The notes under the pieces: model-generated | Told to the model about the DNA's origin: nothing | The model's database searches: none | The model's input: only the letters and a program-made list of their open reading frames with translations | Origin: a virus | Taxonomy: Duplodnaviria > Heunggongvirae > Uroviricota > Caudoviricetes | Virus record (IMG/VR): IMGVR_UViG_2627853844_000002 | Length of the DNA stretch: 19,945 nucleotides | Direction: 5' to 3' (one strand) | Made by a program: the position numbers and the translations under genes | Part shown: one piece after another, positions 3,407 through 16,637 of the stretch | Layout: every line of letters starts with the position of its first letter | How positions within the stretch are numbered: the first letter of the stretch is position 1

Positions 3407-3712
3407 TTATCGACAGGTCAGGTCACCGCTCACCCGCCGACGAGAAAGCAACACTGACATGCTAAAGCAAAAAATAGATGAATAAGTTGAGTTGTGCATA
3501 TGTAGCCTGACCGTCACAAAGTATATGGTGTCTGTACCAGTAAGATGATGGCCGGACTCTTTAAAAACGAGCTGACCTGCACAATACAGGATGGACTTAG
3601 CAATGGCTGCTCCTGGCACAAAGCGGACAGTGATCACCGTTCTTACGACTACTTTCTGACTTCCTTCGTGACTTGCCCTAAGCATGTTGTAGTGCGATAC
3701 TTGTAATGACAT
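3407..3712 (-). CDS. ydfV: Hypothetical ORF (ydfV-like, 101 aa); doubtful coding status, overlaps the relB promoter/operator
   Basis: ORF track only; length matches the annotated K-12 ydfV as I recall; no recognisable domain. Confidence 0.3.
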   Translation of the reverse strand: MSLQVSHYNMLRASHEGSQKVVVRTVITVRFVPGAAIAKSILYCAGQLVFKESGHHLTGTDTIYFVTVRLHMHNSTYSSIFCFSMSVLLSRRRVSGDLTCR

Positions 3713-4490: not shown

Positions 4491-4558
4491 GAGACCCGGC
4501 GGGGGAGAAATCCCTCGCCACCTCTGATGTGGCAGGCATCCTCAACGCACCCGCACTT

Positions 4559-4590
4559 AACCCGCTTCGGCGGGTTTTTGTTTTTATTTT
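4559..4590 (+). terminator. Rho-independent terminator of the relB-relE-hokD operon
   Basis: CCCGC-TTCG-GCGGG hairpin (4561-4574) followed by TTTTTGTTTTTATTTT. Confidence 0.8.
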
Positions 4591-4598
4591 CAACGCGT

Positions 4599-4628
4599 TT
4601 GAAGTTCTGGACGGTGCCGGAATAGAAT
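4599..4628 (+). promoter_or_regulatory. Candidate sigma-70 promoter upstream of rem (TTGAAG-N18-TAGAAT)
   Basis: Hexamers read directly from the sequence; spacing 18 nt; function inferred only. Confidence 0.3.
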
Positions 4629-4706
4629 CAAAAATACTTAAGTAGCGCGCAGGGATAAGAGGGATGGTCCCTTAAAGGGGAGAGCTAATTATCCGGAAGG
4701 ATTCTG

Positions 4707-4958
4707 ATGATGAACATCGAAGAACTGCGTAAAATTTTTTGTGAAGATGGCCTCTATGCTGTGTGCGTTGAAAATGGAAATCTTGTTAGTCATTACCGCA
4801 TTATGTGTTTGCGAAAGAATGGGGCTGCGTTAATTAATTTTGTGGATGCTCGGGTCACGGACGGATTTATCTTGCGCGAAGGTGAGTTTGTCACTTCATT
4901 ACAGGCATTGAAAGAGATCGGAATAAAAGCTGGCTTTTCTGCTTTTTCAGGAGAATAA
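4707..4958 (+). CDS. rem: Uncharacterised prophage protein (83 aa), probably Rem
   Basis: ORF translation MMNIEELRKIFCEDGLYAVCVENGNLVSHYRIMCLRKNG...; length and position after hokD match my recollection of rem; the sequence itself was not recalled independently. Confidence 0.45.
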   Translation: MMNIEELRKIFCEDGLYAVCVENGNLVSHYRIMCLRKNGAALINFVDARVTDGFILREGEFVTSLQALKEIGIKAGFSAFSGE

Positions 4959-5024
4959 ACTCATCTACAATCTTGCGCGGGGCTGAACTCCCGCTGAGTA
5001 ACACCGTGCCACCGGAGAAAACCG

Positions 5025-5303
5025 ATGGCACGCAACGCAAAATATTACAATTCTGATAATTCGCCCGTTCTTGCCTGCACGCACGGGCGGTATTCTCACG
5101 CATTCAAGTCTGAATGGTTCCAGCACCCTCCATGCACTGCAGAACAGGCCGAATGGCTGATTCATTCTTACCGCAGGCGCGGGTTCGAGGTTAAGAAAGC
5201 TCTCAGTCTCGACTATCGGCACTGGATAATCTCTGTCAGGCTGCCTTATTCCGAACGCCCACCACGTGCGTCCCGCACTTTCCAGCAACGGATCTGGAGG
5301 TAA
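5025..5303 (+). CDS. Hypothetical protein (92 aa); its stop overlaps the ydfU ribosome-binding site
   Basis: Good SD (GGAGA, 6-nt spacer) before ATG 5025; stop TAA at 5301-5303 sits 1 nt before the ydfU GTG start; no recognisable domain. Confidence 0.4.
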   Translation: MARNAKYYNSDNSPVLACTHGRYSHAFKSEWFQHPPCTAEQAEWLIHSYRRRGFEVKKALSLDYRHWIISVRLPYSERPPRASRTFQQRIWR

Positions 5304-5304
5304 C

Positions 5305-6354
5305 GTGCGGGTATTACTTAGACCTGTTCTGGTGCCTGAGCTTGGGCTGGTGGTCCTTAAGCCGGGCCGTGAATCCATACAGATATTTCATAATCCTCGA
5401 GTGCTGGTGGAACCGGAACCAAAAAGCATGCGTAATCTGCCATCCGGAGTCGTTCCTGCCGTTCGCCAGCCGCTGGCGGAAGACAAAACATTGCTGCCGT
5501 TTTTTAGTAACGAACGGGTGATTCGTGCTGCTGGCGGCGTTGGCGCATTGTCCGACTGGCTATTACGTCATGTTACATCCTGCCAGTGGCCTAATGGCGA
5601 TTACCATCACACTGAAACAGTCATTCACCGTTATGGTACCGGCGCAATGGTGTTGTGCTGGCACTGCGACAACCAACTGCGTGACCAGACATCGGAATCA
5701 CTGGAGCTGCTTGCTCAACAAAATCTGACAGCATGGGTGATTGACGTCATCCGTCACGCAATAAGCGGTACGCAGGAGCGGGAATTATCTTTGGCTGAAT
5801 TATCCTGGTGGGCGGTCTGCAATCAGGTGGTGGATGCACTACCTGAGGCTGTATCGCGTCGTTCGCTGGGATTACCAGCGGAAAAAATCTGCTCGGTGTA
5901 CCGCGAAAGCGACATCGTACCGGGAGAGCAGACCGCCACCAGCATATTGAAACAACGCACAAAAAATCTTGCACCGTTGCCTTACGCCCACCAGCAACAA
6001 AAATCACCACAGGAAAAGACGGTGGTAAGCATCACCGTTGATCCAGAGTCTCCGGAATCTTTCATGAAGCTGCCTAAACGTCGCCGCTGGGTTAAGGAGA
6101 AATACACACGTTGGGTTAAGACACAGCCGTGTGCTTGCTGCGGTATGCCAGCCGACGATCCGCATCATCTGATTGGTCACGGGCAGGGCGGAATGGGAAC
6201 AAAAGCACATGATCTCTTTGTGTTGCCTTTGTGCAGAAAGCATCACAACGAGCTGCATACGGATACAGTGGCATTTGAAGATAAGTATGGCTCCCAACTG
6301 GAGCTGATATTTCGTTTTATCGATCGCGCGCTGGCAATTGGCGTACTGGCGTAA
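5305..6354 (+). CDS. ydfU: YdfU, DUF968-family prophage protein with a C-terminal HNH-like zinc-finger nuclease motif (349 aa from GTG)
   Basis: GGAGG SD then GTG at 5305; C-terminus contains CACCGMPADDPHH...GTKAHDLFVLPLCRKHHNELH (CxxC ... HH ... CxxHH). The ORF track's longer 5266 start is less likely. Confidence 0.7.
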   Translation: MRVLLRPVLVPELGLVVLKPGRESIQIFHNPRVLVEPEPKSMRNLPSGVVPAVRQPLAEDKTLLPFFSNERVIRAAGGVGALSDWLLRHVTSCQWPNGDYHHTETVIHRYGTGAMVLCWHCDNQLRDQTSESLELLAQQNLTAWVIDVIRHAISGTQERELSLAELSWWAVCNQVVDALPEAVSRRSLGLPAEKICSVYRESDIVPGEQTATSILKQRTKNLAPLPYAHQQQKSPQEKTVVSITVDPESPESFMKLPKRRRWVKEKYTRWVKTQPCACCGMPADDPHHLIGHGQGGMGTKAHDLFVLPLCRKHHNELHTDTVAFEDKYGSQLELIFRFIDRALAIGVLA

Positions 6355-6367
6355 GTGGAGAACGAGC

Positions 6368-7120
6368 ATGAACCTTGAAGCCTTACCAAAATATTACTCC
6401 CCAAAATCTCCAAAATTGAGCGATGACGCTCCAGCGACAGGCACCGGTTGTTTAACAATTACGGATGTAATGGCAGCGCAGGGGATGGTGCAGTCGAAAG
6501 CACCACTTGGGTTGGCCTTATTTCTGGCAAAAGTTGGTGTTCAGGACCCTCAGTTTGCGATTGAAGGCCTGCTAAATTACGCGATGGCACTGGATAACCC
6601 GACATTGAACAAATTGAGTGAAGAAATCCGGTTACAGATTATTCCTTACCTCGTGAGTTTTGCCTTTGCTGATTACTCCAGGTCTGCGGCAAGTAAGGCT
6701 CGCTGTGAGCATTGTTCAGGTACGGGATTTTATAATGTATTGCGCGAAGTGGTGAAACACTACAGACGCGGGGAATCTGTAATCAAGGAAGAATGGGTGA
6801 AGGAACTATGTCAGCATTGCCATGGTAAGGGCGAAGCCAGCACAGCGTGCAGAGGGTGTAAGGGTAAAGGGATTGTTCTGGATGAAAAAAGAACCCGGTT
6901 TCATGGCGTACCGGTATATAAGATTTGTGGGCGTTGTAATGGAAACCGGTTTAGTCGTTTACCGACCACGCTGGCACGACGTCATGTCCAGAAGCTGGTA
7001 CCAGACCTGACCGATTATCAGTGGTATAAGGGGTATGCGGACGTCATTGGTAAACTGGTAACAAAGTGCTGGCAGGAAGAAGCATACGCGGAAGCGCAAT
7101 TGAGGAAGGTGACGAGATAA
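6368..7120 (+). CDS. quuQ: Q-family late-gene antiterminator (250 aa)
   Basis: ORF translation from the internal Met MNLEALPKYY...; multiple CxxC zinc-finger pairs (CEHCSGTG, CQHCHGKG, CRGCKGKG, CGRCNG); sits immediately upstream of a PR'-like promoter and terminator. Confidence 0.8.
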   Translation: MNLEALPKYYSPKSPKLSDDAPATGTGCLTITDVMAAQGMVQSKAPLGLALFLAKVGVQDPQFAIEGLLNYAMALDNPTLNKLSEEIRLQIIPYLVSFAFADYSRSAASKARCEHCSGTGFYNVLREVVKHYRRGESVIKEEWVKELCQHCHGKGEASTACRGCKGKGIVLDEKRTRFHGVPVYKICGRCNGNRFSRLPTTLARRHVQKLVPDLTDYQWYKGYADVIGKLVTKCWQEEAYAEAQLRKVTR

Positions 7121-7754: not shown

Positions 7755-8054
7755 AAAAATTCCTTAATACTGATAACTTGGCGCACTATACACACGTTCC
7801 TGAAGAAAGCTATAGTTTTTTGATGGGGTTGAAGATGGCTGGATGTCTAAAATAAACATTGCTTCATATGTTCAACTATGCGTTAATGATTGCGTCGGTT
7901 TGAAGAACAGACGATATACGAAGTAGTTTACTAAAGCAGTTCTCATTTCAGGTGTTATTCACTTATTCCTTCTTTGAGTCTCTCCAATTAAGTACGAAGT
8001 CGTTTCTGTTATGCAAACCATTTATGCCGAAAGGCTCAAGTTAAGGAATGTAGA

Positions 8055-8270
8055 ATGTCAAATAAAATGACTGGTTTAGTAAAATGGTTTAACGCTGATA
8101 AAGGTTTCGGCTTTATTTCTCCTGTTGATGGTAGTAAAGATGTGTTTGTGCATTTTTCTGCGATTCAGAATGATAATTATCGAACCTTATTTGAAGGTCA
8201 AAAGGTTACCTTCTCTATAGAGAGTGGTGCTAAAGGTCCTGCAGCAGCAAATGTCATCATTACTGATTAA
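8055..8270 (+). CDS. cspB: Cold-shock protein CspB (71 aa)
   Basis: ORF translation [71 protein letters not shown]. Confidence 0.95.
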
Positions 8271-8381
8271 AATTCATCGCTCGTCTGTATACGATAACGA
8301 AGAAGGCTGATGCCTGAGTAGAGATACGGACAGAGTAGTGAATATTGGATCTCTTTAATAAAAAGTAAGGAGGTCCAATAC

Positions 8382-10579: not shown

Positions 10580-10941
10580 GGTAATATTAAATCGGAACAT
10601 TTACATCGCGGAATGTAAAATTTAAATAAAAAGGACTCTTCCATGAGCCAAAATTCCTGAAATCTTAAGGGTAAGATAAAAGGTCTTAATCAGAATGACA
10701 CGTTTTATTAATAAATAAAGCTATTCTTTCATTGCTGTGTTTTTCTTTACAAAAGTAATCCTTGCTATGGGTGGTTAATCATGCGTTAATGGTGTTCTGG
10801 TTTGTTACAAATTTATCTGAAGCAGTCATTGTTATAATTTTATTATTTGTACCTCTTGAGATTTCCTTGTTGGTTTTTCTCTCTGATATTTTTTTTCGGA
10901 CCATTCTGCCCAAGGGCTAATTTCTTCAAAAGGTAATAATT

Positions 10942-11154
10942 ATGTCTAACAAAATGACTGGTTTAGTGAAATGGTTTAACCCTGAAAAAGGTTTTGGTTT
11001 CATCACGCCGAAAGATGGCAGCAAAGATGTGTTTGTCCATTTCTCAGCAATTCAGAGCAACGATTTCAAAACATTAACTGAGAATCAGGAAGTTGAATTT
11101 GGTATTGAGAACGGACCTAAAGGTCCTGCCGCTGTTCATGTAGTGGCGCTTTGA
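10942..11154 (+). CDS. cspI: Cold-shock protein CspI (70 aa)
   Basis: ORF translation [70 protein letters not shown]. Confidence 0.95.
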
Positions 11155-11353
11155 GGTAGACAATATTACAAACCATATTCACTTTAGATGCCCGTGTTGT
11201 CATGGTTCCCAGTATAGAACATCATCTTTTGATGTTTCTGACATGAATCCTTTCGGGGCAAAATGTATCTTTTGTAAATCAATGATGATTACATTTGATA
11301 ATATTTCACAATACTTAAATGCCAGCCGTCTGTCGTTGGATTTAAAAAAGTGA
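11144..11353 (+). pseudogene. Zinc-ribbon-like reading frame (paralog of the 8634..8804 ORF) lacking any canonical in-frame start before its first Cys cluster; only the C-terminal 36 codons (ATG 11243) are conventionally translatable
   Basis: Frame +1 relative to cspI reads ...FRCPCCHGSQYRTSSFDVSDMNPFGAKCIFCKSMMITFDNISQYLNASRLSLDLKK*; an ATG at 11188 is out of frame by one nucleotide (ATG CCC GTG ... stops after 9 codons). Confidence 0.35.
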
Positions 11354-12598: not shown

Positions 12599-12644
12599 CT
12601 GATGAATCCCCTAATGATTTTGGTAAAAATCATTAAGTTAAGGT

Positions 12645-12713
12645 GGATACACATCTTGTCATATGATCAAATGGTTTCGCGAAAAATCAATAATCAGACA
12701 ACAAGATGTGCGA
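12645..12713 (-). ncRNA. IS10 antisense RNA-OUT (from pOUT; represses transposase translation); coordinates approximate
   Basis: Placed from established IS10 organisation (RNA-OUT covering roughly IS10 nt 47-115, overlapping the transposase start at nt 108); not derived independently from the sequence. Confidence 0.5.
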
Positions 12714-16062: not shown

Positions 16063-16637
16063 TGGCATTCAGAATGAGTGAACAACCACGGACCATAAAA
16101 ATTTATAATCTGCTGGCCGGAACTAATGAATTTATTGGTGAAGGTGATGCATATATTCCGCCTCATACAGGTCTGCCAGCAAACAGTACCGATATTGCAC
16201 CGCCAGATATTCCGGCTGGCTTCGTGGCTGTTTTCAACAGTGATGAGTCATCGTGGCATCTCGTTGAAGATCATCGGGGTAAAACGGTTTATGACGTGGC
16301 TTCCGGCGACGCGTTATTTATTTCTGAACTCGGTCCGTTACCGGAAAATGTTACCTGGTTATCGCCGGAAGGGGAGTTTCAGAAGTGGAACGGCACAGCC
16401 TGGGTGAAGGATACGGAAGCAGAAAAACTGTTCCGGATCCGGGAGGCGGAAGAAACAAAAAACAACCTGATGCAGGTAGCCAGTGAGCATATTGCGCCGC
16501 TTCAGGATGCTGCAGATCTGGAAATTGCAACGGAGGAAGAAATCTCGTTGCTGGAAGCATGGAAAAAGTATCGGGTATTGCTGAACCGTGTTGATACGTC
16601 AACTGCACAGGATATTGAATGGCCAGCACTGCCGTAG
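16062..16637 (+). CDS. tfaQ: Tail-fibre assembly protein (191 aa)
   Basis: ORF translation [78 protein letters not shown]...; start overlaps the stf stop. Confidence 0.85.

Follow-up and report, generated by a model that had tools for sequence, protein, structure and literature searches.

A conserved 92-codon gene upstream of ydfU in the Qin prophage of Escherichia coli K-12, probably coupled to ydfU and preceded by a structured leader RNA

Coupling of two genes by termination and reinitiation, with an occluded ribosome-binding site in front of the downstream gene, is classically described for trpE-trpD and for the coat and lysis genes of RNA phages. Early operons of lambdoid phages also carry promoter-proximal RNA hairpins, of which the lambda nut (boxA-boxB) and HK022 put RNAs offer a lead for the present locus. 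A third precedent is the isrK-orf45-anrP operon of the Gifsy-1 prophage, which is transcribed but translationally silent: the ribosome-binding region of its first small open reading frame (ORF) is structured, and translation of that ORF turns on the next gene by coupling and affects expression of a Q-type antiterminator (PMC4825925). Here we describe a locus with resemblances to these systems, a 92-codon ORF (ORF92) which immediately precedes ydfU in the cryptic prophage Qin of E. coli K-12. Coordinates refer to a stretch of 19,945 nucleotides (nt) from the IMG/VR virus record IMGVR_UViG_2627853844_000002 (Caudoviricetes), termed the window, which is 100% identical to the corresponding region of strain W3110. 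The evidence taken together argues that ORF92 is a genuine gene of the lambdoid nin region, coupled to ydfU and heading a leader-controlled block, an explanation to which we assign a probability of about 0.75.

The gene order of the region is relB, relE, hokD, rem, the unnamed ORF92, ydfU and ydfT/quuQ. ORF92 is the first cistron of a block that comprises ORF92, ydfU and quuQ:

5025..5303, + strand: ORF92, 92 amino acids (aa), family phrog_1212; residues 1-26 form a weakly constrained extension and residues 27-92 the conserved core
5305..6354, + strand: ydfU, 349 aa, DUF968 His-Me-finger (HNH-like) nuclease with a GTG start
6368..7120, + strand: quuQ/ydfT, Q-type antiterminator, last gene of the block (from annotation)

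The order ORF92, DUF968, (RusA), Q is common to all related loci, rusA being an additional gene between the nuclease gene and Q in related prophages, and of 5426 complete E. coli genomes searched by megablast with positions 4600-5500, 4431 contain related sequence. The curated MG1655 record shows no gene between rem and ydfU. In W3110 and most other genomes, the Prokaryotic Genome Annotation Pipeline (PGAP) calls ORF92 as the hypothetical protein WP_012304870.1, and the exact protein occurs on at least 1000 contigs, where its label is always “hypothetical protein” or “prophage protein”. The initial annotation of this stretch had described two uncharacterised ORFs upstream of ydfU, which is half true, as ORF92 already carries the PGAP name; its coordinates for the ORFs, the Shine-Dalgarno (SD) sequence, the stop/start junction and the promoter hexamers were all correct when re-checked, and the finding as it was noted is correct and largely ordinary. 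The best-curated bacterial genome thus lacks a conserved 92-codon gene that automatic pipelines call elsewhere.

ORF92 starts at ATG 5025, which corresponds to MG1655 position 1644584 on the minus strand, with an SD sequence GGAG (5014-5017) 7 nt upstream. Diverged E. coli copies (63-80% aa identity) all hold a frame of 90-92 codons, and the sole indel among them is 6 nt long and in-frame. The ratio of nonsynonymous to synonymous substitution (dN/dS, Nei-Gojobori), computed for six diverged copies, was 0.11-0.22 for ORF92 read in its own frame, as against 1.4-4.3 for the +1 and +2 frames; on the antisense strand two frames gave about 0.9 or higher, while the low value of the third is the expected artefact of a wobble-aligned frame. 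Variable sites number 20, 21 and 45 at the first, second and third codon positions, respectively, and an overlapping antisense ORF (4965-5378, 137 aa) contains stop codons in three relatives. Constraint is strongest in the core (dN/dS 0.10-0.18 over residues 27-92) and much weaker in the extension (0.42-0.58 over residues 1-26). The annotated neighbours rem and ydfU display comparable values of 0.14 and 0.19 for one and the same genome pair (the second genome being that of E. coli strain 2013C-3342, L003), and ORF92 is therefore as constrained as they are. The upstream ORF, whose possible lack of conservation had been raised initially, is conserved and under frame-specific selection, and both small ORFs are real genes as judged by purifying selection and family matches. 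On these comparative grounds ORF92 is a genuine protein-coding gene of the early-right (nin) region of lambdoid phages, and it merits a name and a locus tag in MG1655. If the interval 4959-5304 were instead an untranslated 5' leader of ydfU with a chance open frame in it, the empty interval in the MG1655 reference and the Rho-dependent termination located 5' of ydfU would both be accounted for; this view is already contradicted by the comparative data, namely the frame-specific purifying selection, the in-frame indels and, as described below, the distant homologues, PHROG family and confident fold, so that we regard it as vanishingly unlikely.

Searches with hmmscan placed residues 27-92 of ORF92 on positions 1-66 of the 66-position profile phrog_1212 (E 1.7e-35). 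Clustered at 90% identity, the family comprises 501 clusters; an exhaustive hidden Markov model (HMM) search of 1.84 billion representatives returned only 104 matches, which are representatives at 50% identity and mostly stand-alone small proteins. As far as these searches reveal, phrog_1212 is a narrow family of stand-alone small proteins from phages of Enterobacterales. Relatives of 66-68 aa, 30-48% identical to ORF92, were identified by tblastn and profile searches in Gifsy-2, mEp237, phiES15 and PY54 and in phages of Klebsiella, Hafnia, Edwardsiella, Erwinia, Pantoea and Citrobacter, the 66-aa relatives occurring in phages of nine other enterobacterial genera. Residues W31, T38, A42, L45, Y49, G53, D63, L73, P74, R81 and W91 are invariant in eight sequences from five host genera, and H34 and C37 are also invariant in an alignment of 49 sequences. 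An AlphaFold2 model calculated from the latter alignment displays a beta-alpha-beta-beta-alpha core with a predicted local distance difference test score (pLDDT) of about 90 over residues 31-70, while the first 26 residues are predicted to be disordered.

ORF92 is thus the long form (90-92 aa) of a family whose members usually have 66-68 aa. Described members include STM1021.1n of Gifsy-2, gp51 of mEp237, gp17 of phiES15, ORF47 of PY54 and the C-terminal part of N15 “Orf QD1”. They resemble ORF92 in occupying the nin-region slot directly 5' of a nuclease gene and in having C-terminal Trp-Gly or Trp-Arg codons that form the SD sequence of the next gene. The Qin-type form differs by its N-terminal extension of 24-26 residues and by its place as first gene after a leader, whereas in the short forms a ninB-like or ybcN gene comes first, to which the family gene is in turn coupled. 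An origin of the extension by deletion of a ninB-like gene was considered and rejected, as only the first 11 nt (ATGGCGCACGA) are common to the two. A Cys-rich (CxxC) region precedes the family domain in linear-plasmid phages of the N15 type, for example in phage YDC107_1 (L203, 1485-1989); in N15 the Cys-rich region and the family domain are annotated as the single 142-aa “Orf QD1”. The family gene of these phages lies 3' of Q, just before a DnaQ-like exonuclease gene.

Searches of Pfam (E up to 10), NCBIfam and PADLOC with ORF92 gave no match, a sequence-profile search of the PDB nothing meaningful, and a Foldseek search of the model against the PDB and BFVD nothing with E < 1e-3, the best viral match being its own relative N15 Orf QD1. 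An R3H-like fold (Foldseek E 0.8-1.3) was discarded, as only the beta-alpha-beta-beta-alpha order is alike and no R-x-x-x-H motif is present among the conserved residues. Relationship to NinE (PF05322) was likewise rejected in view of the missing Pfam match and an hhalign probability of 0.07% against NinE of DLP12. The few long matches that join the domain to replication-O or baseplate-J domains look like chimeras and were set aside as clues to function. NinD, NinE, NinF and NinH of lambda and DLP12 are, like ORF92, small, tightly packed and located between the recombination and the nuclease/Q genes, and in DLP12 the unrelated ninE occupies the equivalent slot between ybcN and ybcO. The DUF968 family, to which YdfU belongs, has been placed with YbcO in group 7 of the His-Me finger superfamily, and NinG, YbcO and DUF968 are His-Me-finger nucleases thought to be active in phage recombination (PMC5714182). 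ORF92 is probably an accessory factor of the DNA-processing enzymes encoded in the nin region.

The TAA stop codon of ORF92 (5301-5303) is separated by a single base, C5304, from the GTG start of ydfU (5305-5307), and the SD sequence of ydfU, GGAGG (5296-5300), lies within the last two sense codons of ORF92, TGG AGG (Trp-Arg). No change in this junction, TGGAGGTAAcGTG, occurs across 84 related loci or across 14 distinct diverged copies with ORF92 bodies that are on average only 78-83% identical to one another; as the junction stays fixed while the ORF bodies diverge, it is more than a product of chance. The 1-nt gap is also present in each of eleven additional diverged E. coli copies that were obtained by looking up the exact protein. 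The homologue and the next ORF were then compared in 200 loci, with nuclease families confirmed by Pfam. In 84 loci of the Qin type, TGGAGG-TAA-C-GTG precedes a DUF968 protein of 349-352 aa, while TGGGGG-TGA-NN-ATG precedes NinG in 95 loci and YbcO in 14. RusA follows in one locus, and in PY54 the gap extends to 48 nt. The junction therefore presents a clean natural case in which the codons of a C-terminal dipeptide (Trp-Arg or Trp-Gly) double as the SD sequence of the next gene.

The initial annotation had read this layout as typical either of tight translational coupling or of a single ancestral gene split by a frameshift. The layout of tight coupling stands, with a conserved 1-nt gap, a conserved internal SD sequence and a predicted occluding hairpin. 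For the alternative, in which ORF92 and ydfU would be the two halves of a frameshift-split gene surviving as a pseudogene remnant in a decaying prophage, one may cite that Qin is a defective prophage with several pseudogenes in its annotation and that the two frames are only 1 nt apart. No fused ORF92-YdfU protein, however, was found among 129 and 501 protein matches or about 200 loci, the comparison with orthologous prophages that had been suggested, and apart from a few chimeric fragments all matches are 66-92 aa long. Inducible phages and diverged prophages have the identical 1-nt gap, and the small protein stands alone before NinG and YbcO with a 2-nt gap. Gaps of 1 and 2 nt create different frame relations, which rules out a recent split and equally a frameshift fusion that is conserved. 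YdfU is also complete: it matches PF06147 (DUF968) with E 1.4e-76 (256.8 bits against a cut-off of 27.8), and its residues 1-349 cover positions 1-334 of the phrog_96 profile end to end from the GTG. With purifying selection acting on both genes in addition, a split ancestral gene deserves practically no credence.

A programmed +1 frameshift at AGG-UAA-C, yielding an ORF92-YdfU fusion in the manner of prfB, is suggested by the SD-like GGAGG adjoining the stop codon, by the rare AGG that would occupy the P site before UAA C, and by the ydfU frame being open for 13 codons 5' of the GTG. The tRNA for AGG cannot re-pair on GGU, so the site offers no slippery codon, and the NinG and YbcO junctions with their 2-nt gap would need a different shift. 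Upstream of its start the ydfU frame is not conserved, the in-frame GTG at 5266 being GTC in relatives, whereas GTG 5305 is invariant. Such a frameshift is accordingly highly improbable.

The RNA around the junction is predicted to fold into a hairpin:

5272..5311, + strand: junction hairpin, -19.3 kcal/mol, z -1.76 (folding prediction)

In this structure ORF92 codons 83-87 (CCCGCAC UUUCCAG) pair with CUGGAGG, which holds the ydfU SD sequence, and with GUGCGGG, which holds the ydfU start, while the stop UAA and the following C form an internal bulge. For the ydfU start codon, the predicted probability of being unpaired is 0.02 in K-12 and 0.01 in L004, a copy with 76% identity. Across 14 distinct copies the nucleotide identity, averaged over pairs, is 0.78-0.83 within the ORF body, increases to 0.93 over the final 11 codons and reaches 0.98 immediately beyond them; changes in the hairpin arms are few, mostly C-to-U, with G-U pairs retained. 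Because the predicted hairpin buries both the SD sequence and the GTG of ydfU, we infer an obligatory coupling in which ydfU would be translated only by ribosomes that have read ORF92. Ribosomes terminating at UAA 5301-5303 would reinitiate one base further on at the ydfU GUG, using GGAGG, and with SD and GUG locked against codons 83-87 ydfU would be translated only if ORF92 is. The arrangement resembles classical coupling in that stop and start are a few nt apart, the SD sequence lies inside the upstream ORF and the start is held in a predicted hairpin with upstream codons; it differs in the GUG start and in the short spacing of 4 nt between GGAGG and GUG.

Upstream of ORF92, alignment of the 110 nt 5' of the gene from unrelated contexts revealed a leader with a promoter-like element and two hairpins, P1 and P2:

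4944..4971, + strand: promoter-like element of the ORF92-ydfU-quuQ block, -35 TTTTCA (4944-4949), 16-nt spacer, -10 TACAAT (4966-4971)
4977..4994, + strand: leader hairpin P1, stem 4977-4981/4990-4994, loop GCUGAACU in K-12
5005..5032, + strand: leader hairpin P2, 5005-5015 pairing with 5022-5032

The family consensus of the P1 loop is CCUGAACAA. In P2 the SD GGAG (5014-5017) lies at the edge of the loop, and the U and G of the ORF92 AUG (5025-5027) are paired in the 3' arm. A TAnnnT hexamer located 6-8 nt 5' of P1 and a TTGNNN 16-18 nt further upstream recur in otherwise unrelated flanks; the arms of P1 covary around a fixed loop, and the 5' arm of P2 is complementary to the sequence around the start codon. 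When viral contigs were scanned for the 15-mer CAGCCTGAACAACTG, more than 120 loci emerged, and about 70 of 83 distinct contexts present the whole architecture including the TTGNNN 16-18 nt before the hexamer; the word is short, and some matches, those lacking all other features, are due to chance. The gene that follows is either of the ORF92 type or a ninB-like gene of 197-200 aa, both of which begin with ATGGCGCA.

A covariance model (R1) built from 14 seeds matched 81 of a set of 85 loci whose selection was based on the protein and not on the RNA, and in loci with the short form it matched about 600 nt upstream, before the ninB-like gene. In K-12 it identified the Qin leader at 4975-5036 (25.9 bits, E about 1e-4 to 1e-5) and a copy in the DLP12 prophage just before ylcH (28.7 bits; L010 3320-3379 for MG1655); the Gifsy-2 leader (L006) lies at 1844-1907. 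In an alignment of 37 distinct rows (A7), 91% of positions assigned to stems were paired, as against 14-44% with the partners slid, 12 of 15 pairs displayed double changes and none of 500 shuffles reached the observed score. Four of the five P1 pairs occur as three to five standard pair types (GC, AU, UA, CG, UG), with 99% of cells paired. None of 500 shuffles reached the score of a second alignment (A6) either. A7 had been fitted to the model, and the inner P1 pairs of A6 are fixed by the search word. P1 and P2 form the minimum-energy fold in seven of eight lineages when the 5' end is set at P1; only P2 forms in the eighth (L218). The K-12 copy and two typical copies gave no match covering P1-P2 in Rfam 15 (E up to 10), the weak matches (E 0.2-9) being to unrelated families and lying over the upstream terminator or clipping the leader edge, and a literature search on the loop sequence and on the ylcH and ybcN leaders retrieved no relevant description. 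The leader at 4944-5032 is conserved and structured and apparently undescribed, and it is the most interesting element within the interval under study.

Compensatory changes in P2 form a series, GCGCCA/UGGCGC, GCGUCA/UGGCGC, GCGUCA/UGACGC and GCACCA/UGGUGC. Over the first three of these the second codon, at first Ala, becomes Thr, and the initial residues of the protein are therefore dictated by RNA structure. This observation bears on whether ORF92 is only a regulatory leader ORF, whose translation opens the ydfU start and masks a Rho loading region while the peptide itself has no function. The first 26 codons would suit that role, being weakly constrained, predicted to be disordered and set at their beginning by P2, where Ala changes to Thr along with the partner base, and so would the C-rich region and the Rho-dependent terminator upstream of ydfU that are described below. 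The core does not suit it: 66 residues with 30-48% identity across ten enterobacterial host genera and 11-12 invariant residues, a dN/dS of 0.10-0.18 and a confident fold with pLDDT of about 90 speak for a functional protein, as does the retention of Trp91 even in PY54, where no gene follows closely. A purely regulatory ORF92 is consequently improbable.

Support for the promoter of the leader comes from the Gifsy-1 antQ operon, whose transcription start site (TSS) has been mapped 1,600 nt upstream of antQ (PMC4825925). The sister prophage Gifsy-2 has its leader at 1844 and Q at 3451, and the distance of about 1,600 nt equals that measured in Gifsy-1. ORF92 would then lie behind a sigma-70-type promoter and a two-hairpin leader in which P2 pairs with its start codon, a feature that makes ORF92 initiation a likely control point for the whole block. 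The isrK-orf45-anrP operon differs from this arrangement in its location 3' of antQ, in its sequences and in being activated by a trans-acting small RNA. P1 is, like the nut and put RNAs, a promoter-proximal hairpin that has a fixed loop and a covarying stem and lies 5' of terminators and Q in an early operon of lambdoid type. Its loop of 8-9 nt contrasts with the 5-nt GNRA-like loop of boxB and, unlike nut and put, the leader holds an SD sequence and a start codon in P2, which points to translational control. A role of P1 as a DNA operator is judged less likely, since its centre is invariant and covariation is confined to the arms. For CTGGCATTCTGGTTTAC in rem-less loci, a sigma-54 promoter was considered and rejected by eye, as no GC is present at -12. 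The sole perfect complement of the consensus P1 loop in the window, TTGTTCAGG, lies at 6712-6720 inside quuQ; near-matches number 13 against 5.5 expected, a value reached by three of 200 shuffles, and the complement in quuQ is probably due to chance.

Published data connect the region to Rho. The terminator upstream of ydfU is among the strongest Rho-dependent terminators, and ydfU mRNA increases in rho and nusG mutants and with bicyclomycin, while rem mRNA does not (PMC9160355). Positions 4930-5290, which coincide with ORF92, contain 27-35% C and 21-28% G; this C-rich composition would fit the Rho-dependent terminator, and the segment is a plausible Rho loading region. The rise of ydfU without Rho and the C-rich ORF92 together indicate that the region behaves in K-12 like poorly translated RNA. 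A closed leader would prevent ORF92 translation, Rho would then stop transcription before ydfU and Q, and the prophage would remain silent.

On this basis one may propose, tentatively and with the odds somewhat against it, that the leader represents an undescribed class of cis-regulatory RNA heading the Q operon, in which translation of ORF92 licenses both the translation of ydfU and the transcription of Q. The class would include Qin, DLP12, Gifsy-1 and Gifsy-2, mEp237-like phages and relatives of phages that carry Shiga toxin (Stx) genes. P2 would keep the first cistron untranslated, Rho would end transcription within the C-rich ORF and late functions of the lysogen would stay silent, until the block was lifted either by a ligand that binds the invariant CCUGAACAA loop or by N-modified polymerase coming from PR; ydfU would be licensed by coupling and Q transcription by anti-polarity. 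ORF92 stands at the entry to an operon ending in Q, the activator of the lysis genes and, in Stx phages, of the toxin genes, and ydfU-type genes are among the accessory genes associated with haemolytic-uraemic syndrome in a genome-wide study of Shiga toxin-producing E. coli (PMC11950266). If the leader and ORF92 translation gate this operon, they would be part of late-gene silencing and of the waking of prophages by Rho inhibition.

Several observations weigh against a translated, coupled and leader-controlled ORF92 in K-12. The ORF92-ydfU RNA is probably poorly translated and Rho-terminated in laboratory K-12, and the supplement of the Stringer et al. preprint and a Cappable-seq supplement contain no entry for ORF92. 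The K-12 leader copy is diverged, with 25.9 bits compared with the 60-80 bits that are typical. The junction hairpin is only modestly better than expected, as nine of 200 shuffles fold as well, and the high conservation of the junction could have another cause, namely constraint on the N-terminus of YdfU or recombination at a module boundary. The protein has no relative of known function by structure or sequence in the PDB, BFVD, Pfam or NCBIfam. Finally, in SfV-type phages a YdfU with 58% identity is preceded by a different gene and the small gene is missing, and an obligate pairing of the small protein with DUF968 was rejected for this reason.

The gene preceding the leader, together with its flanking signals, consists of the following elements:

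4559..4586, + strand: intrinsic terminator after hokD, 7-bp stem, 4-nt loop and T-run (consensus scan)
4599..4628, + strand: candidate sigma-70 promoter of rem, TTGAAG (4599-4604), 18-nt spacer, TAGAAT (4623-4628)
4707..4958, + strand: rem, 83 aa, annotated in MG1655 and W3110; phrog_340, E 4e-21

The tentative identification of the 4707-4958 ORF as rem is borne out by the MG1655 and W3110 annotation, and all Rem homologues carry the precomputed Pfam accession PF27490. The proposed promoter is present as described, just 3' of the hokD terminator, whose hairpin and T-run proper occupy 4559-4576, and nine of its 12 hexamer positions match the consensus; the promoter scan on its own is not significant, with three promoter-like sites against 1.8 expected. 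The supplement of PMC9160355 places the reverse primer for quantitative reverse-transcription PCR of ydfU 1200 nt from the TSS. This primer maps to 5815-5834, which leads to a TSS at 4635, 7 nt past TAGAAT; the position follows from the published primer distance and was not read from primary data, and the rem promoter is consistent with the TSS used in that study.

rem constitutes a distinct, optional module, which carries a promoter of its own and is inserted between the terminator of hokD and the ORF92 leader. Many related prophages lack it, and in these loci the same hokD terminator is found directly 5' of the ORF92 leader promoter. In one contig (L025, 376-437 and upstream) rem is precisely deleted, apparently via a short repeat AAT/CTT, and the rem promoter TAGAAT CAAAAAT is joined straight to the leader hairpin. 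The gene starts with ATGATG (4707-4712); the first codon is TTG in strain 2013C-3342 and in many homologues the second Met is the start, so that translation may in fact begin at 4710 and yield a protein of 82 aa. The AlphaFold2 model of Rem reached a pLDDT of 54, too low for a fold search, and a match to SocB (E 0.0099, 14.9 bits against a cut-off of 210) was dismissed as noise.

An Rfam match to isrK covers the hokD 3' end and terminator (4499-4580), and not the leader, with 25.1 bits and E 0.0036, below the gathering score of 50, and in locus L231 a partial isrK-like match (4640-4688) lies just 5' of the leader. Elsewhere in the window, Rfam matches above the gathering score are DicF (175-226, - strand), RNA-OUT (12644-12713, - strand), IS009 (16405-16603, + strand) and two cspA thermoregulator leaders (7894-8286 and 10796-11181, both + strand) in the cspB and cspI regions.

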